Assembly: GCF_002854065.1 (NCBI RefSeq)
Contig: NZ_CP024147.1
Source: Escherichia coli
GTDB taxonomy: Bacteria; Pseudomonadota; Gammaproteobacteria; Enterobacterales; Enterobacteriaceae
DNA length: 64,000 bases
Strand: one strand, 5' to 3'
This document shows positions 16,469-48,869 of the stretch, piece by piece (the stretch's first letter is position 1; every line of letters starts with the position of its first letter). A program made the position numbers and the translations under genes. The notes below the pieces were generated by a model. That model was not told the origin of the DNA. It searched no databases and was given only the letters and a program-made list of their open reading frames with translations.

Positions 16469-16484
16469 TGGCGTAAATCTTGCC
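16469..16484 (+). promoter_or_regulatory. Candidate sigma-54 (-24/-12) promoter upstream of xdhA
   Basis: TGGCGTAAATCTTGCC: GG at 16470-16471 and GC at 16482-16483 with canonical spacing and TTGC at -12; about 55 bp upstream of the xdhA start. Confidence 0.5.
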
Positions 16485-16539
16485 TGCTTAGACTAAATCT
16501 TTGCCATAAGAACCAAATGTTCAAATCGAGGGGATTTCT

Positions 16540-18837
16540 ATGGAAGCGCGGGAAGCAACCGCTACGGGTGAATCATGCATGCGCGTTGATGCCATTGCTA
16601 AGGTCACCGGGCGGGCACGATATACTGACGATTATGTTATGGCGGGCATGTGTTATGCGAAATATGTACGTAGCCCTATCGCACATGGTTATGCCGTAAG
16701 TATTAATGATGAACAAGCCAGAAGTTTACCAGGCGTACTGGCGATTTTTACCTGGGAAGATGTGCCTGATATCCCATTCGCTACAGCTGGGCATGCATGG
16801 ACACTTGACGAAAACAAGCGCGATACCGCCGATCGCGCACTGCTAACTCGCCATGTTCGTCATCATGGTGACGCCGTTGCCATCGTCGTGGCCCGCGATG
16901 AACTCACGGCAGAAAAAGCGGCGCAATTGGTCAGCATTGAGTGGCAAGAATTACCCGTTATCACCACGCCAGAAGCGGCGCTGGCAGAGGACGCTGCACC
17001 AATCCATAACGGCGGCAATTTACTGAAACAAAGCACGATGTCGACGGGCAATGTCCAACAAACAATCGATGCCGCCGACTACCAGGTACAGGGGCACTAT
17101 CAGACTCCCGTTATTCAACATTGTCACATGGAAAGCGTAACATCGCTGGCGTGGATGGAGGATGACTCGCGAATTACCATCGTTTCCAGCACCCAGATCC
17201 CGCACATTGTTCGCCGCGTGGTTGGTCAGGCGCTGGATATTCCCTGGTCATGCGTACGAGTCATCAAACCATTTGTCGGTGGCGGTTTTGGTAATAAACA
17301 GGATGTACTGGAAGAGCCAATGGCGGCATTCCTGACCAGCAAGCTTGGCGGCATTCCGGTGAAAGTTTCCCTTAGCCGTGAAGAGTGTTTCCTCGCAACC
17401 CGTACCCGCCACGCTTTTACTATTGACGGGCAAATGGGCGTGAGCCGCGACGGAACATTGAAAGGTTATAGTCTGGATGTTCTGTCTAACACCGGCGCTT
17501 ATGCATCTCACGGGCACTCCATCGCTTCTGCGGGGGGGAATAAAGTCGCTTACCTTTATCCTCGTTGTGCCTACGCTTACAGTTCAAAGACCTGCTATAC
17601 CAACCTCCCCTCGGCTGGTGCGATGCGTGGTTATGGCGCGCCACAAGTCGTATTTGCCGTTGAGTCTATGCTTGATGACGCCGCGACAGCGTTAGGTATT
17701 GATCCTGTTGAAATTCGTTTACGCAACGCCGCACGCGAAGGAGATGCTAATCCGCTCACGGGCAAACGTATTTACAGCGCAGGGTTGCCGGAGTGTCTTG
17801 AAAAAGGCCGGAAAATCTTTGAATGGGAAAAACGCCGTGTAGAATGCCAGAACCAGCAAGGCAATTTACGCCGCGGCGTTGGCGTCGCCTGTTTTAGCTA
17901 CACCTCTAATACCTGGCCTGTCGGCGTAGAAATAGCAGGCGCGCGCCTTCTGATGAATCAGGATGGAACCATCAACGTGCAAAGCGGCGCGACGGAAATC
18001 GGTCAGGGTGCCGACACCGTCTTCTCGCAAATGGTGGCAGAAACCGTGGGGGTTCCGGTCAGCGACGTTCGCGTTATTTCAACACAAGATACCGACGTTA
18101 CGCCGTTCGATCCCGGCGCATTTGCCTCACGCCAGAGCTATGTTGCTGCGCCTGCGCTGCGCAGTGCGGCACTGTTATTAAAAGAGAAAATCATCGCTCA
18201 CGCCGCAGTCATGCTACATCAGTCAGCGATGAATCTGACCCTGATAAAAGGCCATATCGTGCTGGTTGAACGACCGGAAGAGCCGTTAATGTCGTTAAAA
18301 GATTTGGCGATGGACGCTTTCTACCACCCTGAACGCGGCGGGCAGCTCTCTGCTGAAAGCTCCATCAAAACCACCACTAACCCACCGGCGTTCGGCTGTA
18401 CCTTTGTTGATCTGACGGTCGATATTGCGCTGTGCAAAGTCACCATCAACCGCATCCTCAACGTTCATGATTCGGGGCATATTCTAAATCCGCTGCTGGC
18501 AGAAGGTCAGGTACACGGCGGAATGGGAATGGGCATTGGCTGGGCGCTATTTGAAGAGATGATCATCGATGCGAAAAGCGGCGTGGTCCGTAACCCCAAT
18601 CTGCTGGATTACAAAATGCCGACCATGCCGGATCTGCCACAACTGGAAAGCGCGTTCGTCGAAATCAATGAGCCGCAATCCGCATACGGACATAAGTCAC
18701 TGGGTGAGCCACCAATAATTCCTGTTGCCGCTGCTATTCGTAACGCGGTGAAGATGGCTACCGGTGTTGCAATCAATACACTGCCGCTGACGCCAAAACG
18801 GTTATATGAAGAGTTTCATCTGGCAGGATTGATTTGA
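16540..18837 (+). CDS. xdhA: Xanthine dehydrogenase, molybdopterin-binding subunit
   Basis: 765-aa ORF; GAGGGG Shine-Dalgarno before the ATG at 16540; an alternative start at 16579 (MRVDAIAKVTGRARYTDDY) gives 752 aa. Confidence 0.92.
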   Translation: MEAREATATGESCMRVDAIAKVTGRARYTDDYVMAGMCYAKYVRSPIAHGYAVSINDEQARSLPGVLAIFTWEDVPDIPFATAGHAWTLDENKRDTADRALLTRHVRHHGDAVAIVVARDELTAEKAAQLVSIEWQELPVITTPEAALAEDAAPIHNGGNLLKQSTMSTGNVQQTIDAADYQVQGHYQTPVIQHCHMESVTSLAWMEDDSRITIVSSTQIPHIVRRVVGQALDIPWSCVRVIKPFVGGGFGNKQDVLEEPMAAFLTSKLGGIPVKVSLSREECFLATRTRHAFTIDGQMGVSRDGTLKGYSLDVLSNTGAYASHGHSIASAGGNKVAYLYPRCAYAYSSKTCYTNLPSAGAMRGYGAPQVVFAVESMLDDAATALGIDPVEIRLRNAAREGDANPLTGKRIYSAGLPECLEKGRKIFEWEKRRVECQNQQGNLRRGVGVACFSYTSNTWPVGVEIAGARLLMNQDGTINVQSGATEIGQGADTVFSQMVAETVGVPVSDVRVISTQDTDVTPFDPGAFASRQSYVAAPALRSAALLLKEKIIAHAAVMLHQSAMNLTLIKGHIVLVERPEEPLMSLKDLAMDAFYHPERGGQLSAESSIKTTTNPPAFGCTFVDLTVDIALCKVTINRILNVHDSGHILNPLLAEGQVHGGMGMGIGWALFEEMIIDAKSGVVRNPNLLDYKMPTMPDLPQLESAFVEINEPQSAYGHKSLGEPPIIPVAAAIRNAVKMATGVAINTLPLTPKRLYEEFHLAGLI

Positions 18838-18847
18838 AGATAACATC

Positions 18848-19726
18848 ATGTTTGATTTTGCTTCTTACCATCGCGCAGCAACCCTTGCCGATGCCATCAA
18901 CCTGCTGGCTGACAACCCGCAGGCCAAACTGCTCGCCGGTGGCACTGACGTACTGATTCAGCTCCACCATCACAATGACCGTTATCGCCATATTGTTGAT
19001 ATTCATAATCTGGCGGAGCTGCGGGGAATTACGCTGGCGGAAGATGGCTCGCTACGTATCGGCTCTGCAACGACATTTACCCAGCTAATAGAAGATCCTA
19101 TAACTCAACGTCATCTCCCGGCGTTATGTGCTGCGGCCTCGTCCATTGCTGGACCGCAGATCCGTAACGTCGCTACCTACGGTGGAAATATTTGCAACGG
19201 TGCCACCAGCGCAGATTCTGCCACGCCAACGCTCATTTATGACGCGAAACTGGAGATCCACTCCCCACGCAGTGTTCGTTTCGTCCCGATTAATGGCTTT
19301 CACACCGGGCCGGGCAAAGTGTCTCTTGAGCATGACGAAATCCTTGTCGCCTTTCATTTTCCGCCCCAGCCGAAAGAACACGTGGGCAGCGCGCATTTTA
19401 AATATGCCATGCGCGACGCAATGGATATTTCAACGATTGGCTGCGCCGCACATTGCCGACTGGATAACGGCAATTTCAGCGAATTACGTCTGGCATTTGG
19501 TGTTGCCGCGCCAACGCCGATTCGCTGCCAACATGCCGAACAGACTGCACAAAATGCGCCATTAAACCTGCAAACGCTTGAAGCTATCAGCGAATCTGTC
19601 CTGCAAGATGTCGCCCCGCGTTCTTCATGGCGGGCCAGTAAAGAGTTTCGTCTGCATCTCATCCAGACGATGACCAAAAAAGTGATTAGCGAAGCCGTCG
19701 CCGCGGCGGGGGGAAAATTGCAATGA
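18848..19726 (+). CDS. xdhB: Xanthine dehydrogenase, FAD-binding subunit
   Basis: 292-aa ORF; FAD-binding CO-dehydrogenase-flavoprotein-type fold ([11 protein letters not shown]). Confidence 0.92.
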
Positions 19727-20202
19727 ATCACAGCGAAACAATTACCATCGAATGCACCATTAACGGGATGCCTTTTCAGCTTCATGCCGCACCAGGCACG
19801 CCGCTCTCGGAATTACTCCGCGAACAAGGACTGCTAAGTGTCAAACAAGGGTGCTGCGTGGGTGAATGTGGTGCCTGTACGGTGCTGGTCGACGGCACAG
19901 CAATAGACAGTTGCTTATACCTTGCCGCCTGGGCTGAAGGAAAAGAGATCCGCACGCTGGAAGGTGAAGCGAAAGGCGGAAAACTTTCTCATGTTCAGCA
20001 GGCTTATGCGAAATCCGGCGCAGTGCAGTGCGGGTTTTGTACGCCTGGCCTGATTATGGCTACCACGGCAATGCTGGCGAAACCACGCGAGAAGCCATTA
20101 ACCATTACGGAAATTCGTCGCGGACTGGCGGGAAATCTTTGTCGCTGCACGGGGTATCAGATGATTGTAAATACAGTTCTGGATTGCGAGAAAACGAAGT
20201 AA
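19723..20202 (+). CDS. xdhC: Xanthine dehydrogenase, 2Fe-2S subunit
   Basis: 159-aa ORF with two Cys clusters ([11 protein letters not shown]; CGFCTPG ... CRCTGY); ATGA overlap with xdhB. Confidence 0.92.
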
Positions 20203-20241: not shown

Positions 20242-22020
20242 TTATGTGTTTAACAACTCATATTTCTTAATCTTGCGATAGAGCGTAGCAATGCCGATGC
20301 CCAGTTCATCAGCAACTTGCTTCTTGCTGTTATGACGTGAAAGCGCCTCGCGGATCATTTGCTTTTCCATCTCCTCCAGCGCCGTGCCGCCCGCATCATC
20401 GAGTGACAGGTGTGCCTCAGTGACCTCTGTTACATCACTTTGCTCCGTTGTGCCATTATTCAGCAGATTTGGCGGCAATAGCGTGCTGTCGATAACTTCA
20501 CCTGAAGGAACAACGTTAACCAGATATTCCATCAAATTGCTTAACTCGCGCAGGTTTCCGGGCCAACGATGCTTACGCAATATTTCGACGACATCGGGAG
20601 CAATGCCAGGATAAACCGATCCCAGACGACGGGTATGCAGATGTAAAAAGTAATGCACCAGTAGTTCAATATCTTCCTGACGTTCACGCAGCGGTGGCAG
20701 AGTTATCGGGATAACATTAAGTCGGTAGAAGAGATCTTCGCGGAATTTACCTTCGGCAATGAACTGGGCCAAATTCTGGTTAGTTGCAGAAATGATGCGA
20801 ATGTCGACTTGTATTGGGCTACTGGCACCAATCGGCAGAATTTCACGTGCCTCAATAGCGCGCAGTAATTTAGCCTGCAACATTAATGGCATATCACCTA
20901 TTTCATCTAGAAACAGCGTGCCCGTATTCGCCGCCTGAATCAACCCTGTTTTACCGTTGGCAGAAGCGCCAGTAAATGCGCCTTTAACATAACCGAACAG
21001 TTCGCTCTCCAGAAGCTGCTCCGGAATCGCGGCACAGTTGATAGCAATAAAGGGTTTATTCCGTCTTCCGCTCAACTTATGGATTGCACGGGCGACGACT
21101 TCTTTACCCGTGCCGCTTTCACCAACCACCATAACGCTGGATGGGCTGGGTGCAATACGGCTAATGAGTCGTTTTAATTGCCGCATAACACGGCACTCGC
21201 CAACCAATTGTTCAATATGCGGTTCATCAGGTGCATTTGCTACAGAAAAACTGGTATGCGATTGGTGAAACGCCATTAAAAATAATTGTCGGCCCTGAAT
21301 GTTATGCAATTGGCCAATGATTAATTCACTTTTATCGTCCCACGAAACAATATGCTGCATATGTCCATGGGTAAAATTACTCTCAAATGTTAATGGTCTG
21401 AAACGGATAGGTTTCCCAATAATATTATTTTGTACAATACCAAGTGTTTTTAAGGCAGTCTGATTAACAAACTGAACCCGACTTTCATCATCAACAACTA
21501 ATACGCCCTGATCCATATTATCGATCATGGTCGCGAATATTTTACTGATGTTATCTCCTGGCCCCTGATCCTCCAGAAGTTTCGAAACAAAAATGGTGGA
21601 TATATGGCGAACATAATCAGAAAATTCGCGTAAATTATCACTGATATGCTCTTGTTGCTCGTGGGTAACGGCAATCAAACTTATCACCCCAACACAACGA
21701 TCCTGTAAAATGACAGGCGTACCCAGAAATGCTTTTTCGCGGCAATTTTCTTTACTATCGCAACCTTCGCAAAGGGGATCGAAGCGAGACTGTGTCACAA
21801 CTTTTTCAGTTTTCGTTTCCAGGACGTGGCGGAGCAGGCGTGAGTTGCCGCTCAACTGGCGACCAAGAAACTTCCCATACGCGCCAGTTCCGGCGACGCG
21901 ACACAAGTTTTCATCAACGATCTCAACCTCAAGCTGCAAAACGCTGGCAAGCATTCTGGCAAAACGCTGAATTGTCGGTTGAATTTGCATCAATACTGAC
22001 TGCGTAGTAGCAAGCTCCAT
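20242..22020 (-). CDS. ygeV: Sigma-54-dependent transcriptional activator (enhancer-binding protein)
   Basis: 592-aa ORF with central AAA+ domain (VVGESGTGKE Walker A; GAFTGA motif) and C-terminal HTH. Confidence 0.92.
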   Translation of the reverse strand: MELATTQSVLMQIQPTIQRFARMLASVLQLEVEIVDENLCRVAGTGAYGKFLGRQLSGNSRLLRHVLETKTEKVVTQSRFDPLCEGCDSKENCREKAFLGTPVILQDRCVGVISLIAVTHEQQEHISDNLREFSDYVRHISTIFVSKLLEDQGPGDNISKIFATMIDNMDQGVLVVDDESRVQFVNQTALKTLGIVQNNIIGKPIRFRPLTFESNFTHGHMQHIVSWDDKSELIIGQLHNIQGRQLFLMAFHQSHTSFSVANAPDEPHIEQLVGECRVMRQLKRLISRIAPSPSSVMVVGESGTGKEVVARAIHKLSGRRNKPFIAINCAAIPEQLLESELFGYVKGAFTGASANGKTGLIQAANTGTLFLDEIGDMPLMLQAKLLRAIEAREILPIGASSPIQVDIRIISATNQNLAQFIAEGKFREDLFYRLNVIPITLPPLRERQEDIELLVHYFLHLHTRRLGSVYPGIAPDVVEILRKHRWPGNLRELSNLMEYLVNVVPSGEVIDSTLLPPNLLNNGTTEQSDVTEVTEAHLSLDDAGGTALEEMEKQMIREALSRHNSKKQVADELGIGIATLYRKIKKYELLNT

Positions 22021-22389
22021 AGCTTTACCTTCCAGACTTACTTAAAAGTCGATCATTGAAGACGTTGATGGTTCACAGATCATGATGATATTAACTCAGG
22101 CGAAATTGGCTTTGATAAAAACATAAGATTTTTATCACTTTCTAATGAAATTATGGAAGAGATATCACATTTCTATATCAATATGAGAATTACGGCGGTG
22201 AGTTTATCAAACTGACGAGGGATAGCCTGCCCCTTTATCTTATTTCTGATACTTAGCAGCAAATAAATAACGCAATAAAAAAAGCCAAACGTTTTCGTAT
22301 TTTACAAACAACCGGAAGCTAGCATCAATTTGTGATCAACCCCACACATTATCCGTCAAATTAGTCTTTTGCAGCCCCGTGGATAATTC

Positions 22390-22405
22390 TGGCACACTTA
22401 TTGTT
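22390..22405 (+). promoter_or_regulatory. Candidate sigma-54 promoter upstream of ygeW (non-canonical -12)
   Basis: TGGCACACTTATTGTT: perfect -24 TGGCAC, but -12 is TTGT rather than TTGC; about 90 bp upstream of ygeW. Confidence 0.3.
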
Positions 22406-22495
22406 AGTCCCAGGTATAGCTGTGAAAACACCAATCACTTTGGCAAGTCACAGTGAAATAAACCACTTTGCCTGTCATTCCACTACCGGGACTTT

Positions 22496-23686
22496 ATGAT
22501 GAAAACTGTTAATGAGCTGATTAAGGATATCAATTCGCTGACCTCTCACCTTCACGAGAAAGATTTTTTGTTAACGTGGGAACAGACGCCAGATGAACTG
22601 AAACAAGTACTGGACGTTGCCGCAGCATTAAAAGCACTGCGTGCTGAAAACATCTCAACCAAAGTCTTTAATAGTGGATTAGGTATTTCCGTATTCCGCG
22701 ACAACTCCACTCGTACCCGCTTCTCTTATGCTTCCGCGCTTAACCTGCTCGGCCTTGCACAGCAAGATCTCGATGAAGGCAAATCACAAATCGCTCACGG
22801 CGAAACCGTGCGTGAAACCGCCAATATGATCTCCTTCTGCGCCGACGCTATTGGTATTCGCGACGATATGTATCTGGGCGCAGGCAACGCCTATATGCGT
22901 GAAGTTGGCGCTGCACTTGATGACGGTTACAAGCAGGGTGTACTGCCACAGCGTCCGGCTTTAGTGAACCTGCAATGCGATATTGACCACCCGACTCAGT
23001 CAATGGCTGACCTCGCGTGGTTACGTGAACACTTTGGTTCACTGGAAAACCTGAAAGGTAAAAAAATCGCCATGACCTGGGCCTACTCTCCAAGCTATGG
23101 CAAACCGCTCTCTGTACCACAAGGCATCATCGGTCTGATGACTCGCTTCGGTATGGATGTCACCCTGGCCCATCCGGAAGGCTACGACCTGATCCCGGAT
23201 GTGGTTGAAGTGGCGAAAAACAATGCTAAAGCCTCCGGTGGTAGCTTCCGTCAGGTCACCAGCATGGAAGAAGCCTTCAAAGACGCAGACATCGTTTATC
23301 CGAAGTCATGGGCACCTTACAAAGTGATGGAAGAGCGTACTGAATTGCTGCGTGCGAACGATCACGAAGGCTTAAAAGCACTGGAAAAACAGTGTCTGGC
23401 ACAGAACGCGCAACACAAAGACTGGCATTGTACTGAAGAGATGATGGAACTGACCCGTGATGGCGAAGCCCTGTACATGCACTGCCTGCCAGCTGATATC
23501 AGCGGCGTATCCTGCAAAGAAGGTGAAGTGACTGAAGGCGTATTCGAAAAATACCGTATCGCTACCTACAAAGAAGCCAGCTGGAAGCCTTATATCATCG
23601 CCGCGATGATCCTGTCCCGTAAATACGCCAAACCAGGTGCACTGCTCGAGCAACTGCTGAAAGAAGCGCAAGAACGCGTGAAATAA
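22496..23686 (+). CDS. ygeW: Carbamoyltransferase-family protein (OTCase/ATCase fold), substrate unknown from sequence
   Basis: 396-aa ORF with the carbamoyl-phosphate-binding STRTR motif. Confidence 0.9.
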   Translation: MMKTVNELIKDINSLTSHLHEKDFLLTWEQTPDELKQVLDVAAALKALRAENISTKVFNSGLGISVFRDNSTRTRFSYASALNLLGLAQQDLDEGKSQIAHGETVRETANMISFCADAIGIRDDMYLGAGNAYMREVGAALDDGYKQGVLPQRPALVNLQCDIDHPTQSMADLAWLREHFGSLENLKGKKIAMTWAYSPSYGKPLSVPQGIIGLMTRFGMDVTLAHPEGYDLIPDVVEVAKNNAKASGGSFRQVTSMEEAFKDADIVYPKSWAPYKVMEERTELLRANDHEGLKALEKQCLAQNAQHKDWHCTEEMMELTRDGEALYMHCLPADISGVSCKEGEVTEGVFEKYRIATYKEASWKPYIIAAMILSRKYAKPGALLEQLLKEAQERVK

Positions 23687-23743
23687 CCCCTCGGGCCGAT
23701 CAGCTGGTCGGCCCTCTATTTCCAGAGGCCAAAAGGATAGGAT

Positions 23744-24940
23744 ATGTCCGTTTTCTCATTGAAGATTGATATCGCCGATAACAAATTTTTCAACGGCGAA
23801 ACATCACCGCTCTTTTCGCAAAGCCAGGCCAAACTGGCGCGCCAGTTCCACCAGAAAATAGCTGGTTATCGCCCAACACCGCTTTGTGCGCTGGACGATC
23901 TCGCAAACCTTTTTGGTGTGAAGAAAATTCTTGTCAAAGACGAATCAAAACGATTCGGTCTGAACGCCTTCAAAATGCTCGGCGGTGCGTACGCCATCGC
24001 TCAATTATTGTGTGAAAAATATCATCTTGATATCGAAACGCTGTCATTTGAGCACCTGAAAAATGCCATCGGCGAAAAAATGACTTTCGCGACCACCACC
24101 GACGGCAACCACGGGCGCGGTGTGGCGTGGGCAGCGCAGCAACTCGGACAGAATGCGGTGATTTACATGCCGAAAGGTTCTGCTCAGGAACGCGTTGACG
24201 CCATTCTGAACCTCGGTGCCGAGTGCATCGTCACGGATATGAACTATGACGATACCGTTCGCCTGACCATGCAACACGCGCAGCAGCACGGCTGGGAAGT
24301 GGTACAGGACACGGCATGGGAAGGTTACACCAAAATCCCAACCTGGATCATGCAAGGCTACGCAACCCTGGCAGATGAAGCCGTCGAGCAAATGCGTGAA
24401 ATGGGCGTAACCCCGACGCACGTTCTGCTGCAAGCCGGTGTCGGAGCAATGGCCGGTGGTGTGCTGGGTTATCTGGTCGACGTCTATAGCCCGCAAAATC
24501 TGCACAGCATTATTGTTGAACCTGACAAAGCTGACTGTATTTATCGCTCCGGCGTCAAAGGCGACATCGTCAACGTTGGCGGTGATATGGCCACCATCAT
24601 GGCGGGCCTGGCCTGTGGCGAACCTAACCCGCTGGGCTGGGAAATCCTACGTAACTGCGCCACCCAATTCATCTCCTGCCAGGACAGCGTTGCCGCATTA
24701 GGTATGCGCGTGCTGGGTAATCCGTACGGCAACGACCCGCGCATCATCTCCGGTGAATCCGGCGCTGTCGGTTTGGGCGTTCTCGCGGCGGTTCATTATC
24801 ACCCGCAACGTCAAAGCCTGATGGAAAAACTGGCGCTGAACAAAGATGCCGTAGTGCTGGTTATCAGCACTGAAGGTGACACCGACGTGAAGCACTATCG
24901 CGAAGTTGTCTGGGAAGGCAAACACGCTGTAGCACCTTAA
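23744..24940 (+). CDS. ygeX: Diaminopropionate ammonia-lyase (PLP-dependent, fold type II)
   Basis: 398-aa ORF; AAGGA Shine-Dalgarno upstream. Confidence 0.9.
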   Translation: MSVFSLKIDIADNKFFNGETSPLFSQSQAKLARQFHQKIAGYRPTPLCALDDLANLFGVKKILVKDESKRFGLNAFKMLGGAYAIAQLLCEKYHLDIETLSFEHLKNAIGEKMTFATTTDGNHGRGVAWAAQQLGQNAVIYMPKGSAQERVDAILNLGAECIVTDMNYDDTVRLTMQHAQQHGWEVVQDTAWEGYTKIPTWIMQGYATLADEAVEQMREMGVTPTHVLLQAGVGAMAGGVLGYLVDVYSPQNLHSIIVEPDKADCIYRSGVKGDIVNVGGDMATIMAGLACGEPNPLGWEILRNCATQFISCQDSVAALGMRVLGNPYGNDPRIISGESGAVGLGVLAAVHYHPQRQSLMEKLALNKDAVVLVISTEGDTDVKHYREVVWEGKHAVAP

Positions 24941-24997
24941 TCACCCTATTGGAACTGCTCCCTGCAAAACGGGGAGTAAAAAATCTGGAGAAAAATA

Positions 24998-26209: not shown

Positions 26210-26226
26210 TTACTCTTCACTTATTC

Positions 26227-26251
26227 CCCTCCGGTTCGCCGGAGGGTTTTT
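26227..26251 (+). terminator. Intrinsic terminator or attenuator between ygeY and hyuA
   Basis: Stem CCCTCCGG/CCGGAGGG with TTCG loop, then TTTTT; the hyuA GGAG Shine-Dalgarno (26252-26255) follows directly. Confidence 0.6.
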
Positions 26252-26261
26252 GGAGTTTGCT

Positions 26262-27647: not shown

Positions 27648-27694
27648 CCACTGCCAGGGATCTATACACAATCAAGAATGATGAGTGAGGAAAA

Positions 27695-28627: not shown

Positions 28628-28633
28628 TTTTAA

Positions 28634-28664
28634 GGCCGGGTGGGTAATACCATCCGGCCATTTT
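28634..28664 (+). terminator. Intrinsic terminator downstream of yqeA
   Basis: 10-bp stem GGCCGGGTGG/CCATCCGGCC (one G-U pair), then ATTTTCATTT. Confidence 0.6.
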
Positions 28665-28667
28665 CAT

Positions 28668-30293: not shown

Positions 30294-30340
30294 ACCAACC
30301 TCAATGGATATCCTTTCAGTAACCCGGAATACCCGGGCCG

Positions 30341-31111: not shown

Positions 31112-31213
31112 GAGTCTTTATGACCTCTCTGGGATAAATTACCCCCAACTTAATCCATCAGGAAGTAACGCAATTATCAGGCGTTATTAGCCCCTATAAA
31201 TAATGGAACCACT

Positions 31214-32032: not shown

Positions 32033-32113
32033 ATTGTTGCTCTATCCCCCTAAACCACCGGATTTCTCAACACCGGTCACTCAATGATATCTGTATAAGC
32101 TAAGGAGAGGGTT

Positions 32114-35212: not shown

Positions 35213-35214
35213 TC

Positions 35215-36543: not shown

Positions 36544-36593
36544 ATGACAGATGCCCTCTTCCCGCAGGGAAGAGGGTTAAATAAGGAAAGAAG

Positions 36594-40240: not shown

Positions 40241-40249
40241 GTAATAAAT

Positions 40250-40278
40250 GGCCGCTTCGGCGGCCTGTTTCTCTGTTT
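40250..40278 (+). terminator. Intrinsic terminator downstream of xdhD
   Basis: Stem GGCCGC/GCGGCC with TTCG loop, then TGTTTCTCTGTTT. Confidence 0.7.
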
Positions 40279-40404: not shown

Positions 40405-41805
40405 ATGTCTGATATAAACCATGCAGGTTCTGACCTTATATTTGAACTGGAGGATCGCCCTCCCTTTCATCAGGCTCTCGTTGGTGCCATTACCCATCTG
40501 TTGGCAATTTTCGTTCCGATGGTAACCCCCGCGTTAATCGTGGGTGCGGCCTTACAGCTTTCCGCTGAAACAACCGCCTATCTTGTTTCTATGGCGATGA
40601 TCGCCTCTGGTATTGGTACCTGGTTACAAGTAAACCGCTACGGCATCGTCGGTTCTGGCCTACTCTCAATTCAGTCAGTCAATTTTTCATTTGTTACGGT
40701 CATGATTGCGCTGGGCAGCAGCATGAAAAGCGACGGTTTTCACGAAGAGTTAATCATGTCGTCGCTTCTCGGCGTCTCCTTCGTTGGCGCATTTCTGGTT
40801 GTCGGATCTTCATTTATCTTGCCCTATTTACGTCGGGTTATTACGCCTACCGTCAGCGGTATTGTGGTACTGATGATCGGCTTAAGCCTGATTAAAGTCG
40901 GCATTATCGATTTTGGTGGAGGATTTGCAGCCAAAAGCAGCGGTACGTTCGGCAATTACGAACATCTCGGCGTTGGTTTATTGGTTTTAATTGTGGTGAT
41001 CGGCTTTAACTGCTGTCGCAGTCCGTTGCTACGCATGGGAGGGATCGCCATTGGGCTATGTGTCGGCTATATCGCATCGTTATGCCTGGGCATGGTGGAT
41101 TTCAGCAGTATGCGCAATTTGCCGTTAATCACCATCCCGCATCCGTTCAAATACGGCTTTAGTTTTAGCTTCCATCAGTTCCTGGTGGTTGGCACGATTT
41201 ATCTGCTTAGCGTGCTGGAAGCAGTCGGCGATATCACCGCCACGGCAATGGTTTCCCGCCGCCCCATTCAGGGGGAAGAGTATCAGTCCCGACTGAAAGG
41301 CGGCGTGCTGGCAGATGGTCTGGTTTCTGTTATCGCCTCCGCTGTTGGTTCATTACCATTAACCACGTTTGCGCAAAATAATGGGGTTATTCAGATGACT
41401 GGCGTCGCTTCACGTTATGTCGGGCGAACCATCGCGGTAATGCTGGTTATCCTCGGCTTATTTCCGATGATTGGCGGCTTCTTCACGACCATTCCCTCGG
41501 CAGTTCTGGGAGGCGCAATGACGTTGATGTTTTCCATGATTGCCATCGCTGGGATTCGCATCATCATCACCAACGGATTAAAGCGGCGTGAAACACTTAT
41601 TGTCGCCACTTCTTTAGGTTTAGGGCTTGGCGTCTCCTACGATCCCGAAATTTTTAAAATATTGCCAGCCTCTATTTATGTATTAGTTGAAAACCCTATT
41701 TGTGCTGGCGGGTTAACTGCGATTTTATTAAATATTATCCTCCCTGGTGGCTACCGACAGGAAAACGTTCTGCCTGGTATTACCTCAGCGGAAGAGATGG
41801 ATTAA
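40405..41805 (+). CDS. xanQ: Xanthine permease (NCS2/NAT family)
   Basis: 466-aa ORF from MSDINHAGSDLIFELEDRPPF with AAGGAG Shine-Dalgarno; the track ORF has a 19-codon upstream extension. Confidence 0.92.
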   Translation: MSDINHAGSDLIFELEDRPPFHQALVGAITHLLAIFVPMVTPALIVGAALQLSAETTAYLVSMAMIASGIGTWLQVNRYGIVGSGLLSIQSVNFSFVTVMIALGSSMKSDGFHEELIMSSLLGVSFVGAFLVVGSSFILPYLRRVITPTVSGIVVLMIGLSLIKVGIIDFGGGFAAKSSGTFGNYEHLGVGLLVLIVVIGFNCCRSPLLRMGGIAIGLCVGYIASLCLGMVDFSSMRNLPLITIPHPFKYGFSFSFHQFLVVGTIYLLSVLEAVGDITATAMVSRRPIQGEEYQSRLKGGVLADGLVSVIASAVGSLPLTTFAQNNGVIQMTGVASRYVGRTIAVMLVILGLFPMIGGFFTTIPSAVLGGAMTLMFSMIAIAGIRIIITNGLKRRETLIVATSLGLGLGVSYDPEIFKILPASIYVLVENPICAGGLTAILLNIILPGGYRQENVLPGITSAEEMD

Positions 41806-41819
41806 CAGTAAAGGAGTCA

Positions 41820-43139
41820 ATGATGTCAGGAGAACACACGTTAAAAGCGGTACGAGGCAGTTTTATTGATGTCACCCGTACGGTCGATAACCCGGAAGAG
41901 ATTGCCTCTGCGCTGCGGTTTATTGAGGATGGTTTATTACTCATTAAACAGGGAAAAGTGGAATGGTTTGGCGAATGGGAAAACGGAAAGCATCAAATTC
42001 CTGACACCATTCGCGTGCGCGACTATCGCGGCAAACTGATAGTACCGGGCTTTGTCGATACACATATCCATTATCCGCAAAGTGAAATGGTGGGGGCCTA
42101 TGGTGAGCAATTGCTGGAGTGGTTGAATAAACACACCTTCCCTACTGAACGTCGTTATGAGGATTTAGAGTACGCCCGCGAAATGTCGGCGTTCTTCATC
42201 AAGCAGCTTTTACGTAACGGAACCACCACGGCGCTGGTGTTTGGCACTGTTCATCCGCAATCCGTTGATGCGCTGTTTGAAGCCGCCAGTCATATCAATA
42301 TGCGTATGATTGCCGGTAAGGTGATGATGGACCGTAACGCACCGGATTATCTGCTCGACACTGCCGAAAGCAGCTATCACCAAAGCAAAGAACTGATTGA
42401 ACGCTGGCACAAAAATGGTCGTCTGCTATATGCGATTACACCACGCTTCGCCCCTACTTCTTCTCCTGAACAGATGGCGATGGCGCAACGCCTGAAAGAG
42501 GAATATCCGGATACGTGGGTACATACCCATCTCTGTGAAAACAAAGATGAAATTGCCTGGGTGAAATCGCTTTATCCTGACCATGATGGTTATCTGGATG
42601 TTTACCATCAGTACGGCCTGACCGGTAAAAACTGTGTCTTTGCTCACTGCGTCCATCTCGAAGAAAAAGAGTGGGATCGTCTCAGCGAAACCAAATCCAG
42701 CATTGCTTTCTGTCCGACCTCCAACCTTTACCTCGGCAGCGGCTTATTCAACTTGAAAAAAGCATGGCAGAAGAAAGTCAAAGTGGGCATGGGAACGGAT
42801 ATCGGTGCCGGAACCACTTTCAACATGCTGCAAACGCTGAACGAAGCCTACAAAGTGTTGCAATTACAAGGCTATCGCCTCTCGGCATATGAAGCGTTTT
42901 ACCTGGCCACGCTCGGCGGAGCGAAATCTCTGGGCCTTGACGATTTGATTGGCAACTTTTTACCTGGCAAAGAGGCTGATTTCGTGGTGATGGAACCCAC
43001 CGCCACTCCGCTACAGCAGCTGCGCTATGACAACTCTGTTTCTTTAGTCGACAAATTGTTCGTGATGATGACGTTGGGCGATGACCGTTCGATCTACCGC
43101 ACCTACGTTGATGGTCGTCTGGTGTACGAACGCAACTAA
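41820..43139 (+). CDS. guaD: Guanine deaminase
   Basis: 439-aa ORF from MMSGEHTLKAVRGSF with the metal-binding HxH motif (GFVDTHIHYPQ); the track extension overlaps the xanQ 3' end. Confidence 0.92.
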   Translation: MMSGEHTLKAVRGSFIDVTRTVDNPEEIASALRFIEDGLLLIKQGKVEWFGEWENGKHQIPDTIRVRDYRGKLIVPGFVDTHIHYPQSEMVGAYGEQLLEWLNKHTFPTERRYEDLEYAREMSAFFIKQLLRNGTTTALVFGTVHPQSVDALFEAASHINMRMIAGKVMMDRNAPDYLLDTAESSYHQSKELIERWHKNGRLLYAITPRFAPTSSPEQMAMAQRLKEEYPDTWVHTHLCENKDEIAWVKSLYPDHDGYLDVYHQYGLTGKNCVFAHCVHLEEKEWDRLSETKSSIAFCPTSNLYLGSGLFNLKKAWQKKVKVGMGTDIGAGTTFNMLQTLNEAYKVLQLQGYRLSAYEAFYLATLGGAKSLGLDDLIGNFLPGKEADFVVMEPTATPLQQLRYDNSVSLVDKLFVMMTLGDDRSIYRTYVDGRLVYERN

Positions 43140-43174
43140 TAATAAAACTTTAACATCCTCGTGAGGACATCATT

Positions 43175-44542
43175 ATGTCTGGAGACATCCTACAAACACC
43201 GGACGCACCAAAGCCACAGGGCGCGCTGGATAATTATTTTAAAATTACCGCTCGTGGCAGTACCGTTCGTCAGGAAGTACTGGCTGGCTTAACGACCTTT
43301 CTGGCTATGGTTTATTCCGTTATCGTCGTTCCGGGAATGCTGGGCAAAGCAGGTTTTCCTCCCGCAGCTGTGTTTGTTGCCACCTGTCTGGTCGCGGGCT
43401 TCGGCTCGTTGCTGATGGGATTATGGGCCAATTTGCCAATGGCGATTGGTTGCGCGATTTCCTTGACGGCGTTTACCGCATTCAGTCTGGTACTCGGGCA
43501 ACAAATTAGCGTTCCTGTCGCACTGGGCGCGGTATTTCTGATGGGCGTCATCTTCACCGCCATTTCCGTAACCGGTGTGCGTACCTGGATCTTACGTAAT
43601 TTGCCGATGGGTATCGCTCACGGTACAGGTATCGGTATCGGGCTGTTTCTGCTGCTGATTGCTGCTAACGGTGTGGGTATGGTTATCAAAAACCCGATTG
43701 AAGGCTTGCCAGTGGCGCTCGGTGCGTTTACCTCCTTCCCGGTGATGATGAGCTTGCTGGGGCTGGCGGTCATCTTCGGTCTGGAGAAGTGTCGCGTACC
43801 CGGCGGGATCTTGTTGGTGATTATTGCAATTTCGATCATCGGCTTAATCTTTGACCCAGCGGTGAAATACCACGGTCTGGTGGCGATGCCAAGCCTGACT
43901 GGCGAAGATGGTAAGTCTCTGATTTTCAGCCTCGATATTATGGGCGCACTCCAGCCAACTGTACTTCCGAGTGTACTGGCATTGGTGATGACCGCAGTGT
44001 TCGACGCTACTGGCACCATCCGTGCCGTCGCCGGTCAGGCGAATTTGTTGGATAAAGACAACCAGATCATCAACGGCGGCAAAGCCCTGACCAGTGACTC
44101 TGTAAGTTCAATATTCTCCGGCCTGGTGGGCGCAGCGCCCGCAGCGGTTTATATCGAATCAGCGGCAGGAACCGCCGCCGGGGGTAAAACAGGGTTAACC
44201 GCAACCGTAGTGGGGGCGTTATTCCTGCTGATTCTGTTCTTATCACCGCTGTCATTTTTGATCCCTGGTTACGCCACTGCACCCGCTCTGATGTACGTAG
44301 GTTTGCTGATGTTAAGTAACGTCTCGAAGCTGGATTTCAATGATTTTATTGACGCTATGGCTGGCCTGGTGTGTGCCGTGTTCATCGTTCTGACTTGTAA
44401 TATCGTTACCGGTATCATGCTGGGCTTTGTGACACTGGTCGTAGGCCGCGTCTTTGCACGCGAATGGCAAAAGCTGAATATTGGTACGGTGATCATTACT
44501 GCCGCACTGGTCGCATTTTACGCGGGTGGTTGGGCAATCTAA
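43175..44542 (+). CDS. ghxQ: Guanine/hypoxanthine permease (NCS2 family)
   Basis: 455-aa polytopic membrane ORF; K-12 synonym ygfQ. Confidence 0.9.
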
Positions 44543-44547
44543 TAGAT

Positions 44548-44577
44548 TCTCCGCGCCTTTCAGCGCGGAGATTTCTT
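44548..44577 (+). terminator. Intrinsic terminator downstream of ghxQ
   Basis: 9-bp stem TCTCCGCGC/GCGCGGAGA, then TTTCTTT; abuts the convergent ygfS stop. Confidence 0.65.
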
Positions 44578-45069
44578 TCACAGAGGATTCTCACCGCTGG
44601 CAACAATACGCTGCTGGCGGACTCGCCTGAGTTCTCTTTCAGTAAGCAACTGCAGCGCCTGTGTTGGGCAAGATTCAACGCAGGCTGGCCCCTCTTCCCG
44701 CTGTTCACAGAGATCGCATTTCACGATTTGTTGCCGGGTATCCCCCGGCAGCGACTGAATGGTGATCATTCCAAACGGGCACGCACTGACGCAACTCTGA
44801 CAGCCAATACAACGGGCAGAATTGGTCTGCACCACCTGCTCGCCCATCGTCAGCGCCCCCACGGGGCAAGCGCCAACACAAGGGGCGTTTTCACATTGGT
44901 GGCACATCACCGGCGCACTGATGCAGTCCAGTCGCTGTACCTTCAGCCGGGGTAAAAAGATATCGGCATTCAACTCCTGTTCTGAAGGGTGAGCGACCAC
45001 ACAGGCCACTTCACAAGTACGGCAGCCAATACAGTCAGCCGGATTAACGATAATTAACGATTTCATCAC
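44578..45069 (-). CDS. ygfS: 4Fe-4S ferredoxin-type protein
   Basis: 163-aa ORF with four CxxCxxCxxxCP-type clusters. Confidence 0.9.
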
Positions 45070-46985
45070 GATGCCTTCGTATCAAACAGAGTTAACATAT
45101 CGCGCGCCGCCTGCCTTCCTGCGGCCATGGCAGTGACAACCAGATCCGCGCCATGAACTGCATCCCCACCAGCAAAGACTTTTTTCAGATGCGTCTGGGT
45201 AGGTAAATACCCAACGTCGCCGGTTTGAATCAGGCCCCATTTATCGAGTTTAATTCCGCTGCCCTGCAACCACGGCATGGCATGCGCCTGGAAACCAAAG
45301 GCCATAATGAGAACATCGGCGGGCAATTCAAACTCTGAACCCGCAACCGGACGAGGACGACGGCGACCATCCGGCCCCGGCTCACCCATGGCGGTACGAA
45401 TCAGGCCCACCGCAGTTAAACGCCCATCTTCGTCACAAGCGATATATTGCGGCTGAACATTGAATTGAAACTCGACACCTTCCTCGCGCGCATTGACCAC
45501 CTCTTTGCGCGAGCCCGGCATACTGACTTCATCACGACGATACGCGCAGGTCACGCTGGCGGCATTGAGGCGGATGGAAGTCCGCAAACAATCCATTGTC
45601 GTATCGCCACCGCCCAATACCACGACTCGCTTACCTTCCACGTCCGTCAGCGGATACTCTTCAGACTCCGGCAATCCCATGAGCTGGCGGGTATGGGCAG
45701 TCAGGAACGGTAGAGCCTGAATGACACCGGGCGCATCTTCATGCGGCAGATCTGCTCGCATCATCCCGTAAGTCCCCACGCCGATGAAAACTGCATCATA
45801 TTCAGAAGTTAAATCGCTAAAGGTAATATCGCGGCCAATTTCACAGTTAAGATGAAAGTCGATTCCCATTGCGGTGAATATCTCTCGCCGCTGGCTTAAT
45901 ACCGTTTTATCGAGTTTGAAAGGAGGTATGCCAAAAGTCAGCATACCGCCAATTTCTGGATGGCGATCAAAGACATCAACCTGAACTCCTGCGCGCGCCA
46001 GAATATCAGCACACCCTAACCCTGCTGGTCCAGCGCCAATCACCGCCACTTTTTCGCTACGGGGAACAACTTTGCTGACATCGGGACGCCAGCCCATCGC
46101 CAGCGCGGTATCGGTGATGTAGCGTTCCAGATTACCGATAGAGACTGCGCCAGAGTGATCTTTCAAAGTACATGCGCCTTCACAAAGACGGTCCTGTGGA
46201 CATACCCTGCCGCAGATTTCTGGTAAGGAACTGGTCTGGTGGCAAAGTTCTGCCGCTTCAATAATCTTTCCTTCCTGTACCAGACGGATGTAATCCGGAA
46301 TAGCGTTATGCAGCGGGCAATGCCAGTTGCAGTTAGCTTTTTCGGCACAATAAACACAGCGGTCACTCTCATAAGTCGCTTGTTGTGGATCCAGCCCGCA
46401 ATAGATTTCGCCAAAGTGGTTTTTCCGTTCACTTGCTGAAATTTTATCTGCGCCTTTACGCGAGTTAACGGGGAGCAACGCTGCACTGCGAGATGGCTGA
46501 GCGTCTGATGACGCTTTTCCTGCTGCCGTTTTGCGCTGGCGGGCCACCTTTATCTGCTGTAACCCTTTATCGTCCATCAGTCGTAACGCCTGTGTTGGGC
46601 AAACTTCAATACAGGCTTGCGTGCCGGAACTGCGCTGTTTACAAAGGTCGCATTTCTGCGCAATCGTATCGACCATCTCAACGACGCCAAAGGGGCAAGC
46701 GATTGCGCATCTTTTACAACCAATACATTTTTGCTCGTCCAGTTGTACGCTATCGGACTGGAAAGTCAGAGCATTAACCGGACAAGCCGTAACGCAAGGG
46801 GCATTGTTGCAGTGATGGCAGGCCACCGGATTCGCAGCCAGGCCTTTCCCTACAACGTGGATACGTGGTCGAAAGTCACTGTGACTCAGCGGCCAGTTTT
46901 CTTGATTGTGTGCCACCGCACAGGCAATTTCACAAGCATGACAGCCTATACATTCCGCAGCTTCAGCAGCGATAAACTTATTCAT
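45066..46985 (-). CDS. ygfT: Fused Fe-S / FAD-NAD(P) pyridine nucleotide-disulfide oxidoreductase (GltD-like)
   Basis: 639-aa product from [15 protein letters not shown]; N-terminal ferredoxin Cys clusters and dinucleotide-binding motif ([12 protein letters not shown]); the track ORF has 5 extra N-terminal codons. Confidence 0.9.
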
Positions 46986-47336
46986 TTGCATCCCTTTCAT
47001 TTAATGAGTTATGTCTTCTCAAATTTCGCGATGCAATAAACGGGCATATATTAGGTAGCATGACCGTTTTAATTATAATTTTGCGACTGAGTTCAAATTA
47101 TTGCCCCTCAATCTATGCCGCTTTCATTATTTCAACATTGCCGATCAAAAGAGCGCTATCCAGATAAAAACGATTAAATGCGAGAGTGCGACATGCCAGA
47201 ATGATTAATGAAATATCAATATGAGAAAATTACAGATAATTCCATTGTCAGGTTCTCTTGTCATTTTCGTGGTTTAAGCACGATTATGTGATTGCCTCCG
47301 CAATTCCTGTCTCTAACTCCCCTTCCTCGCAAAAAC

Positions 47337-47352
47337 TGGCACTCCACGAGCA
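47337..47352 (+). promoter_or_regulatory. Candidate sigma-54 promoter upstream of uacT
   Basis: TGGCACTCCACGAGCA: perfect -24 TGGCAC, GC at canonical -12 spacing; about 70 bp upstream of the uacT start. Confidence 0.45.
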
Positions 47353-47420
47353 TGTGTTTAGACAGTTTCATTAACGTAAACGGTTGCTTTTTACTCTGGC
47401 GGGCGAAAGGAGAAACACTG

Positions 47421-48869
47421 ATGAGCGCCATAGATTCCCAACTTCCCTCATCTTCTGGGCAAGACCGCCCAACTGATGAGGTTGACCGCATATTATCACC
47501 AGGAAAGCTGATCATACTCGGTCTGCAACACGTCCTTGTCATGTACGCAGGTGCAGTCGCTGTTCCTCTTATGATTGGTGACCGACTGGGCCTCTCAAAA
47601 GAAGCTATTGCGATGCTCATTAGCTCGGATCTCTTTTGCTGCGGGATCGTCACATTATTGCAATGTATCGGTATCGGCCGCTTTATGGGGATCCGCCTGC
47701 CGGTGATTATGTCGGTGACCTTTGCTGCTGTAACACCAATGATAGCCATTGGGATGAACCCGGATATCGGCCTGCTGGGGATATTTGGTGCCACTATCGC
47801 CGCGGGTTTTATCACCACATTATTAGCGCCACTTATCGGTCGCTTGATGCCTTTATTCCCGCCACTGGTTACCGGTGTGGTTATTACTTCTATCGGACTT
47901 AGCATCATTCAGGTGGGTATTGACTGGGCCGCCGGAGGTAAAGGGAATCCGCAATATGGTAATCCCGTTTATTTAGGTATCTCCTTTGCCGTCTTAATTT
48001 TTATCTTGCTCATTACTCGCTATGCGAAAGGATTTATGTCCAACGTCGCCGTATTACTGGGGATTGTATTTGGCTTTTTACTTTCGTGGATGATGAATGA
48101 AGTCAATTTATCCGGGCTACATGATGCCTCGTGGTTTGCGATTGTTACGCCGATGTCGTTTGGTATGCCGATTTTCGATCCCGTTTCCATTCTGACCATG
48201 ACTGCCGTGTTAATCATCGTGTTTATCGAGTCGATGGGGATGTTCCTGGCACTGGGTGAAATAGTCGGTCGTAAACTCTCTTCGCACGATATTATTCGCG
48301 GGCTGCGTGTCGATGGCGTAGGGACAATGATAGGCGGAACGTTTAACAGCTTCCCCCATACGTCATTTTCTCAAAACGTTGGCCTGGTTAGCGTGACGCG
48401 CGTTCATAGCCGCTGGGTGTGTATTTCTTCGGGAATTATATTAATCCTGTTTGGCATGGTGCCAAAAATGGCGGTGCTGGTAGCCTCCATTCCGCAATTT
48501 GTGCTGGGCGGCGCTGGTCTGGTGATGTTCGGCATGGTACTGGCGACAGGGATTCGAATTCTGTCGAGCTGTAACTACACCACCAACCGTTACAACCTCT
48601 ATATTGTGGCGATCAGTCTCGGCGTTGGCATGACTCCGACGCTCTCTCACGATTTCTTTTCTAAGTTACCGGCCGTACTGCAACCGCTGCTACATAGCGG
48701 CATTATGCTCGCAACCCTTAGCGCCGTTGTGCTGAATGTCTTCTTTAATGGCTATCAGCATCATGCTGACCTGGTGAAGGAATCCGTCTCTGATAAAGAT
48801 TTAAAAGTCAGGACAGTACGTATGTGGCTTCTGATGCGCAAGCTGAAGAAAAATGAGCATGGAGAATAA
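47421..48869 (+). CDS. uacT: Uric acid:H+ symporter (NCS2/NAT family)
   Basis: 482-aa ORF from MSAIDSQLPSSSGQDRPTDE with AAAGGAG Shine-Dalgarno; the track ORF starts 43 codons upstream at a TTG. Confidence 0.92.
   Translation: MSAIDSQLPSSSGQDRPTDEVDRILSPGKLIILGLQHVLVMYAGAVAVPLMIGDRLGLSKEAIAMLISSDLFCCGIVTLLQCIGIGRFMGIRLPVIMSVTFAAVTPMIAIGMNPDIGLLGIFGATIAAGFITTLLAPLIGRLMPLFPPLVTGVVITSIGLSIIQVGIDWAAGGKGNPQYGNPVYLGISFAVLIFILLITRYAKGFMSNVAVLLGIVFGFLLSWMMNEVNLSGLHDASWFAIVTPMSFGMPIFDPVSILTMTAVLIIVFIESMGMFLALGEIVGRKLSSHDIIRGLRVDGVGTMIGGTFNSFPHTSFSQNVGLVSVTRVHSRWVCISSGIILILFGMVPKMAVLVASIPQFVLGGAGLVMFGMVLATGIRILSSCNYTTNRYNLYIVAISLGVGMTPTLSHDFFSKLPAVLQPLLHSGIMLATLSAVVLNVFFNGYQHHADLVKESVSDKDLKVRTVRMWLLMRKLKKNEHGE

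Follow-up and report, generated by a model that had tools for sequence, protein, structure and literature searches.

A DioR-type palindrome accompanies the sigma-54 sites of the anaerobic urate gene cluster around ygeV in Escherichia coli

A 64-kb stretch of Escherichia coli chromosome (the window, which was scanned over its whole length and on both strands) carries a cluster of purine-type catabolic operons around ygeV, which encodes a sigma-54 enhancer-binding protein. The cluster spans positions 16469-48869: it opens with the first base of the -24 motif of xdhA and closes with the stop codon of uacT. Every sigma-54 site in it is paired with a palindrome of the type TTATCA-N3-TGATAA, and this pairing is what the present analysis adds. 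Palindromes of this kind are listed as upstream activating sites (UAS) for DioR, whose sigma-54 regulon in Clostridiales was reconstructed computationally and given the function 'Unknown' (Nie, Dong & Yang 2019, PMC6615313). Judged by sequence, YgeV appears to be the enterobacterial counterpart of clostridial DioR, reading the same palindrome. It is probable that YgeV binds these palindromes and fires the sigma-54 promoters of the anaerobic urate operons in response to a urate-type ligand.

Loose consensus searches of the window gave counts close to those in shuffled sequence: 18 matches to TGGC-N8-TGC against 14.5 expected, and 46 matches to TGGCAC-N5-TTGCW with up to two mismatches against 43 expected. 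As neither was enriched, a 17-nt weight matrix was adopted. It was built from 130 sigma-54 sites found in vivo by chromatin immunoprecipitation sequencing (ChIP-seq; Bonocora et al. 2015, PMC4591121), after exclusion of the five sites within the cluster (at xdhA, ygeW, ygfK, ygfT and inside yqeC), and its weakest training site scores 7.4 bits. The top three matches in the window were the xdhA, ygfK and ygeW promoters, all of them intergenic and correctly oriented; they are the only positions scoring at least 13.5 bits, 231 positions scoring at least 5 bits. PxdhA (CTGGCGTAAATCTTGCC, 16468-16484, + strand) ranks first with 15.4 bits and coincides with ChIP-seq site OS29 (FAT 11). PygfK (GTGGTGCGATTGTTGCT, 32025-32041, +; OS31, FAT 26) follows with 14.4 bits and PygeW (CTGGCACACTTATTGTT, 22389-22405, +; OS30, FAT 3) with 13.7 bits. 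Transcription is predicted to start near 16495, 32052 and 22416, respectively. The -12 element of PygeW is TTGT, which is also found in the pspA and pspG sigma-54 sites (PMC4591121). An RpoN peak at ygeV/ygeW has also been obtained by genomic systematic evolution of ligands by exponential enrichment (gSELEX).

The remaining sites are weaker. A site inside yqeC (TGAGCACGAACCTTGCA, 30694-30710, -; 9.0 bits, rank 40; ChIP-seq IS34, FAT 7) faces yqeB from 399 bp upstream. The site upstream of ygfT (TATGCCCGTTTATTGCA, 47032-47048, -; 5.5 bits, rank 198; OS32, FAT 3) lacks the -24 GG both here and in Enterobacter sp. Bisph1, and has the lowest motif score among the intergenic sense-oriented sites of the ChIP-seq study (PMC4591121). 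A candidate PuacT (CTGGCACTCCACGAGCA, 47336-47352, +; 5.8 bits, rank 174) has a degenerate -12 and scores below every training site. No sigma-54 ChIP-seq peak is given for uacT (ygfU) in the tables or supplements of PMC4591121; coordinate mapping puts this candidate some 300 bp away from the peak at ygfT. Less certain predicted transcription starts go with these three sites: 30683 (yqeB, -), 47021 (ygfT, -) and 47363 (uacT, +). The heads of the xanQ, mocA, yqeC and ygeV operons gave no matrix score above 1.8 bits. An earlier note on this DNA, made from the letters alone, had assigned -24/-12-like motifs to four operon heads: those of xdhA, ygeW and ygfK are thus the best in the window and occupied in vivo, and that of uacT could not be told from chance. 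At ygfK the motif is real, and the position probably meant there, 32017, is wrong by nine bases: this overlapping alternative scores 8.5 bits and is not kept in Enterobacter, and the conserved site at 32025 was preferred. Elsewhere in the window, an antisense sigma-54-like motif within xdhB (ATGGCGCATTTTGTGCA, 19546-19562, -) scores 12.8 bits, rank 4; a published RpoN gSELEX peak with the label xdhB/xdhC is about 200 bp away.

The palindrome showed up when the four spacers were read. The 12-mer TATCAATATGAG has exactly three copies in the 64 kb, at 16359 (-), 22176 and 47214, each in an intergenic region of the cluster, and a 12-mer common to three of the four spacers arose in none of 1000 simulations. 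The ygfK spacer holds the palindrome TATCATAATGATA at 31844. Written as T[AC]TCA-N3-TGA[GT]A, the motif is matched exactly at five positions of the window, where 0.18 would be expected: at 22176, 31844 and 47214, and twice in coding sequence, at 24020 (ygeX) and 30454 (yqeC). A literature search for the 12-mer returned nothing relevant.

Two palindromes lie upstream of PxdhA within 16334-16373, TATCACATTGATT (16337-16349) and TATCAATATGAGT (16358-16370, -), 133 and 112 bp respectively from the promoter centre. The ygeV-ygeW spacer contains the candidate main UAS CTATATCAATATGAGAATT (22173-22191), 215 bp from the centre of PygeW, and a weaker copy, GATCATGATGATA (22075-22093), 58 bp upstream of the ygeV start; the distances to PygeW are 215 and 313 bp. 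The copy next to ygeV could possibly be an autoregulatory site, weak in E. coli. The candidate UAS upstream of ygfK, CTTTATCATAATGATAAGG (31841-31859), is 183 bp from the PygfK centre. In the ygfT-uacT spacer, AAATATCAATATGAGAAAA (47211-47229) stands 180 bp away from the sigma-54 site of ygfT and 124 bp away from the candidate PuacT.

These positions were also recovered by a symmetric matrix that owes nothing to the E. coli motif definition, being built from only 13 published clostridial DioR sites (PMC6615313). Its best matches in the window were the ygfT-uacT spacer (20.8 bits), the ygeV-ygeW spacer (18.7 bits), the mocA-ygfK spacer (18.5 bits), the palindrome inside yqeC (TCTCACATTGAGA, 30451-30469; 16.4 bits) and the region upstream of xdhA (13.4 bits for the 19-mer, the 13-nt cores ranking 6 and 8). 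The next match in the remaining 60 kb scores 12.9 bits, and the ygeV-proximal copy 5.6 bits. Published DioR sites include ATTTATCATAATGATAAGG of C. botulinum and ATTTCCCAATATGAGAATT of C. difficile (PMC6615313); the ygfK UAS equals the former at 18 of 19 positions.

Conservation was assessed in Enterobacter sp. Bisph1 (L002/L081), whose YgeV is 69% identical to that of E. coli. Its compact cluster comprises ygeV, ygeWXY-hyuA-yqeA, a yqeB-like gene, ygfK-ssnA, ygfT and uacT. Here the three best sigma-54 matrix matches were PygfK (14.9 bits), PygeW (14.8 bits) and a uacT promoter, TTGGCACAGCTTACGCA (14.3 bits). Four exact palindromes were found against 0.04 expected, all in the intergenic regions that hold these strong sigma-54 motifs, at centre distances of 216 bp (ygeW), 163 and 359 bp (ygfK) and 131 bp (uacT, TCTCACAATGAGA). 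In alignments of about 70-75% identity, conserved blocks fall on the palindromes, the -24/-12 elements and a box resembling the site of the cyclic AMP receptor protein (CRP): PygeW is nearly identical, and PygfK, the ygfK UAS and the main ygeV-ygeW UAS block are conserved too. The ygeV-proximal palindrome, TTTCATATTGATA, is stronger in Bisph1 (16.3 bits) than in E. coli. At the yqeB-like gene, too, a sigma-54 match of the xAGCA type is followed just downstream by a TCTCA-N3-TGAGA palindrome, TCTCAGTTTGAGA, an arrangement like that in E. coli. The ranks of the motifs, the co-occurrence of palindrome and promoter and the conservation of both are observations made here from sequence.

The same comparison bears on uacT. 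The E. coli candidate keeps TGGCAC and the correctly spaced GC of the Bisph1 promoter. When the leaders are compared (47336-47375 in the window, 19175-19230 in L081), about 21 nt between TGGCAC and CGAGCATG are gone from E. coli, a deletion that removes the original -12 and puts GAGCA in its place. To judge from this alignment, the E. coli element looks like a shortened, deletion-derived form of the Enterobacter promoter. Doubtful by its own score but with comparative support from Enterobacter, it may be a genuine though weak element, as the membership of uacT in the YgeV iModulon would suggest. Footprinting within the species was dropped because the ygfT-uacT spacer is almost invariant: of the 5315 E. 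coli genomes carrying it, nearly all have it at 97-100% identity, and one at 90-95%. A search for YgeV homologues returned 120 near-identical E. coli variants, which were uninformative, and a contig scan with YgeV was dominated by generic AAA+ peptide patterns, with Bisph1 as the one close orthologue.

More distant relatives were found at four loci, in a Clostridium metagenome-assembled genome, Eubacterium multiforme, Sedimentibacter hydroxybenzoicus and Propionigenium maris (L003, L006, L007 and L011). In each, a YgeV homologue (36-39% identity over the full length) stands beside homologues of xdhABC, ygeW, ygeX, ygeY, ssnA, hyuA, ygfK and yqeA. These Firmicutes and Fusobacteria loci have sigma-54 motifs of 17-20 bits at their operon heads, and three or four exact TATCA-N3-TGATA palindromes each against about 0.2 expected, most of them roughly 90-230 bp upstream of the promoters. 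YgeV, its orthologue in Bisph1 and all four homologues share one and the same recognition helix, LGIGIATLYRKI; this comparison and the identity of 36-39% refer to the proteins encoded at these loci, as stand-ins for the named DioR proteins CBO2889 and CD3186. According to the gene maps, a DioR-type target set with the activator gene inside the cluster is found in the window, in Bisph1 (L081) and at the four distant loci. A paralogue in Citrobacter werkmanii (L005, 7207-11740; 38% identity) has nearly the same helix-turn-helix (HTH), with S at one position of the recognition helix, and lies beside only dpaL-like and ygeY-like genes; these have a 14.4-bit sigma-54 motif upstream and no exact palindrome, and may form a separate, diaminopropionate-type regulon.

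That ygeV encodes a sigma-54 enhancer-binding protein, as the earlier note had proposed, is borne out by its domains. The protein consists of a GAF domain (residues 1-150), a PAS domain, an AAA+ domain with GAFTGA and HTH_8; Pfam finds PAS, Sigma54_activat, the AAA lid and HTH_8. The AAA+ match is to PF00158 (E 2.1e-70, residues 272-439), and Walker A (GESGTGKE) and GAFTGA are both present and conserved. The protein combines a C-terminal HTH with an N-terminal regulatory domain. No receiver domain was detected in it by Pfam or fold search. Among solved structures no sequence relative of residues 1-150 was found, YgeV stays below the cut-off of every NCBIfam equivalog, and the NtrC equivalog model aligns only with the AAA+/HTH part, below cut-off. 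Because it has GAF and PAS domains and no receiver domain, YgeV is taken to be a ligand-sensing activator in the style of NifA, FhlA and NorR, not a response regulator of the NtrC type. The description of it as a nitrogen-linked regulator is not supported, on this ground and because the gSELEX signal at ygeV/ygeW is unaffected by added NtrC (53% vs 55%); nothing in the analysis connects YgeV with a shortage of nitrogen. The GAF domain contains the pattern C-x2-C-x5-C (C84, C87 and C93; window 21742-21771, -, codons 84-93) in 10 of 11 sequences from three phyla, the only sequence lacking it being a paralogue away from purine genes. This conservation suggests a metal or redox site in the YgeV sensor.

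Sigma-54 occupancy, co-expression, urate induction and enzymology of these operons have been shown by others. Among the 13 genes of a "putative YgeV regulon" iModulon are those of the operons xdhABC and ygeWXY, as well as ygfT (Lamoureux et al. 2023, PMC10602906); its authors name sigma-54 promoters of xdhABC and ygeWXY, and a ygeV mutant is cited there as having lower ygfT expression. A list derived from the iModulon gives xdhABC, ygeWXY, hyuA, ygfK, ssnA, ygfM, xdhD, ygfT and uacT (PMC12133099). E. coli consumes urate anaerobically, a phenotype that tends to be suppressed by glucose, and urate strongly induces ygfK and ygfT (Liu et al. 2022); urate induction is also seen in two Firmicutes and one Actinobacterium. 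On account of this shared induction, urate or a purine downstream of it is the likely signal. The pathway was solved in 2025 (Liu et al., bioRxiv 10.1101/2025.04.24.650524; Li et al., Life Metab, PMC12507026). Urate is converted to 2,8-dioxopurine by XdhD-YgfM, YgfK dearomatises this by reduction, and SsnA and HyuA open the rings. The ureido groups are removed by YgeY and YgeW, with release of carbamoyl phosphate by YgeW; YqeA makes ATP from carbamoyl phosphate, and YgeX converts diaminopropionate to pyruvate and ammonia. The surmise in the earlier note that a complete pathway is encoded here was therefore sound, the pathway being anaerobic urate degradation, and its remark that several substrates were not evident has been overtaken by these two papers. 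Since both the iModulon and the pathway precede it, its central idea is a rediscovery: mostly right, and already published.

Taken together, the following sequence of events is proposed. Dimers of YgeV would bind palindromes of the TTATCA-N3-TGATAA type (half-site T[A/C]TCA) about 110-315 bp upstream of sigma-54 promoters. On encountering urate or a urate-derived purine, YgeV would spend ATP to open the closed sigma-54 complexes. PxdhA, PygeW and PygfK would be the core targets, with ygfT, uacT and the intragenic promoter for yqeB as probable ones. Their transcription would provide the anaerobic uric-acid (2,8-dioxopurine) pathway, the urate importer and possibly cofactor maturation. Binding of the palindrome by YgeV, the identity of the ligand and the membership of uacT, ygfT and yqeB are what we infer. 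A wider reading, offered tentatively and as somewhat doubtful, is that YgeV and DioR form one ancient regulator family, for which one and the same 13-bp palindrome serves across three phyla or more; its members would turn on anaerobic urate catabolism on sensing urate or 2,8-dioxopurine in a GAF domain whose conserved cysteine triad (C84-x2-C87-x5-C93) might hold a metal or respond to redox state, and in E. coli would reach yqeB by way of the promoter and site buried in yqeC.

The strongest rival to sigma-54 control by YgeV, though an unlikely one, is that the sigma-54 sites are mostly non-productive, that sigma-70 promoters under CRP and anaerobic control drive the operons, and that YgeV affects only ygfT or acts indirectly. 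CRP boxes are indeed present. Between the UAS and PygfK lies a perfect consensus, TGTGAGTTCATTCACA (31947-31962), the sole zero-mismatch match in the window, and between the UAS and PygeW a box with one mismatch to TGTGA-N6-TCACA, TGTGATCAACCCCACA (22331-22346), which is kept in Bisph1. So placed, they would add catabolite control at ygeW and ygfK; to our knowledge, it would be unusual for CRP to act as a positive factor at a sigma-54 promoter. The predicted boxes fit the reported glucose repression and the native Crp site reported in the ygeV-ygeW intergenic region, where constitutive promoters put in place of that site raised pathway expression (Li et al. 2025, PMC12507026). That paper mentions only the Crp site, Bonocora et al. 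note that many sigma-54 sites may never fire (PMC4591121), and the ChIP-seq signals at ygeW and ygfT are weak. Yet no convincing sigma-70 promoters were found (22 matches vs 20.3 expected), urate induces the genes and the whole set is co-expressed, and the -24/-12 elements and palindromes are conserved jointly in Enterobacter and across phyla. Two further elements were seen in these spacers and nearby. Upstream of the sigma-54 site inside yqeC, at a distance of about 50 bp, there is a CRP-like box with one mismatch (30754-30769). In the ygeV-ygeW spacer, AGCCAAACGTTTTCGT (22283-22298) resembles the PurR operator consensus, ACGCAAACGTTTTCNT; it falls in a gap of the Bisph1 alignment and is not kept there.

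It is less likely still that the palindrome is read by some other DNA-binding protein, a global or iron/anaerobiosis regulator, and merely coincides with YgeV-linked promoters. The motif is AT-rich, and by inspection the ygfK copy is partly Fur-box-like, sharing ATAATGATAA. The Fur half-sites, however, run TGATA...TATCA, the reverse of the TATCA...TGATA found here, and the motif also differs from the FNR consensus; Fur and FNR were considered unlikely readers for this reason. Moreover, in Proteobacteria, Firmicutes and Fusobacteria the palindrome goes with a YgeV/DioR gene, which is the sole regulator gene of these clusters and has an invariant HTH. The palindrome is also missing upstream of aegA, a ygfT paralogue that is likewise implicated in urate use: the aegA control region gave no DioR-matrix score above 9.2 bits, and the best in its spacer was 5.8 bits. 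Finally, it is very improbable that YgeV, as IsrR, is primarily an indole-responsive virulence regulator for which purine catabolism is a side effect: ygeV is among the most indole-induced genes of enterohaemorrhagic E. coli and affects locus of enterocyte effacement (LEE) expression as well as C. rodentium virulence, but the IsrR paper gives no binding sites and labels YgeV an orphan response regulator although the receiver domain is missing, and in commensals, as in Firmicutes without LEE, it is the purine cluster that is indicated by gene neighbourhood, UAS and sigma-54 promoters alike.

Several points weigh against binding of the palindromes by YgeV at promoters that it activates. The palindrome in yqeC lies downstream, not upstream, of its sigma-54 site, about 240 bp from it, and the yqeB start follows the palindrome after about 160 bp. 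The perfect palindrome inside ygeX (TATCATCTTGATA, 24020-24032) is strong and has no promoter or sigma-54 motif nearby; it is not present in Enterobacter ygeX and may be a chance occurrence or an internal site. By sequence alone, the sigma-54 motifs of ygfT and uacT are at chance level. The YgeV iModulon is rarely active, and its authors tie its activity to ethanol stress in baeR/cpxR mutants (PMC10602906); the protein has, besides, been described as IsrR. The literature search, which did not extend to the primary paper of Iwadate & Kato 2019, found no direct YgeV-DNA binding and no ygeV or rpoN transcriptome. The close comparison is with a single orthologous locus from outside E. coli, that of Bisph1.

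The extent of the regulon follows from the gene map. Gene calls are those of the RefSeq annotation of E. coli CUWW06, whose chromosome is 99.99% identical to window positions 16203-54108, shifted to window coordinates; the same genes are present there, so that the gene content first described was correct, and the cluster was found in 5341 of 5426 complete E. coli genomes. Transcription units were set by strong terminator-like hairpins after yqeA (28634-28659), xdhD (40250-40265) and ghxQ (44548-44571). Three operons are secure: xdhA-xdhB-xdhC, for xanthine dehydrogenase (16540-20202, +), which is named in the iModulon; ygeW-ygeX(dpaL)-ygeY-hyuA-yqeA(arcC) (genes 22499-28627, +; 22499-28659 with the terminator), defined by annotation, terminator and the 2025 enzymology; and ygfK-ssnA-ygfM-xdhD (genes 32114-40240, +; 32114-40265 with the terminator), supported in the same way and by urate induction of ygfK. 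Three further units are probable: the urate-induced ygfT-ygfS (44578-46985, -); uacT, for the urate/proton symporter (47421-48869, +); and yqeB (28668-30293, -), a gene of selenium-dependent molybdenum cofactor maturation and a candidate member. The activator gene ygeV itself occupies 20242-22020 (-). Interspersed among these are genes under other control, and the single regulon of about 32 kb first envisaged is to that extent reduced. No sigma-54 or DioR-type site supporting membership was found at the heads of yqeC (30341-31111, -) and mocA (31214-31792, +). The xanQ-guaD-ghxQ unit (40405-44542, +), behind the xdhD terminator, has no sigma-54 motif, palindrome or ChIP-seq peak and no place in the iModulon-derived list, which leaves the inclusion of guanine deaminase and two of the three transporters in the set unsupported.

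The window loses its colinearity with the reference strain upstream of 16203. Three identical copies of the insertion sequence IS1 (7419-8188, 8212-8980 and 15435-16204) and one IS2 (12912-14242) stand on either side of what remains of the ETT2 type III secretion island (8975-10668 listed), with a truncated SctC-like open reading frame and an InvF-like AraC regulator. One IS1 lies between actS and xdhA, with its end about 130 bp away from the palindromes of xdhA, and its junction has no exact full-length match in the 5426 complete genomes. From the ygeW promoter to the ygfK promoter (22397-32033) the offset to MG1655 coordinates (U00096.2) changes by 180 bp, which points to an indel of about 180 bp relative to K-12 in this interval.

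Removal of urate by gut bacteria, for which they use the cluster, bears on gout and hyperuricaemia, and engineered E. coli over-expressing the cluster are already under test as probiotics. A regulatory switch of the kind proposed could help to explain the strain- and medium-dependent urate consumption noted in the pathway papers. The addition made here is modest, namely the link between YgeV and DioR through the palindrome and the suggestion of yqeB as an extra target; the palindrome does provide a concrete predicted site to mutate or footprint at each promoter, and ties E. coli to the clostridial prediction.

The published YgeV iModulon, together with the sigma-54 ChIP-seq map, embodies the same hypothesis as the earlier note, one sigma-54 activator for these operons. 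Those studies predate the pathway biochemistry, contain neither a YgeV binding motif nor yqeB, and have ethanol stress as the signal. The 2025 pathway papers deal with the same genes but with enzymology rather than regulation, and ygeV figures in them solely as a gene next to an engineered promoter insertion. Like YgeV, the proteins NifA, FhlA and NorR are GAF-domain sigma-54 activators, but YgeV and DioR additionally carry a PAS domain and the C-x2-C-x5-C of the GAF domain. FhlA and NifA bind sites of the TGT-N10-ACA type, unlike the YgeV/DioR palindrome. Among the closest known systems is also the DioR regulon, with some differences. The E. coli promoters are weaker and more degenerate than the clostridial ones, with TTGT as the -12 at ygeW and chance-level elements at ygfT and uacT; the CRP boxes are an E. 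coli addition; and dioR is listed as self-regulated, whereas no sigma-54 promoter was detected for E. coli ygeV. Within the set of papers searched, none was found that ties YgeV to the DioR motif. The likenesses are as follows. DioR has the GAF-PAS-AAA+(GAFTGA)-HTH_8 architecture of YgeV, its UAS is the E. coli palindrome TTATCA-N3-TGATAA (with TCTCA/TGAGA variants in C. difficile), and its sites lie about 120-240 bp upstream of TTGGCA-N7-TGC promoters. Its targets, too, are shared with E. coli: dpaL/ygeX, ygeW-ygfK-ssnA-ygeY, xdhABC and yqeB, which is included in the clostridial regulon (PMC6615313), together with the purine permease gene pbuX in clostridia.

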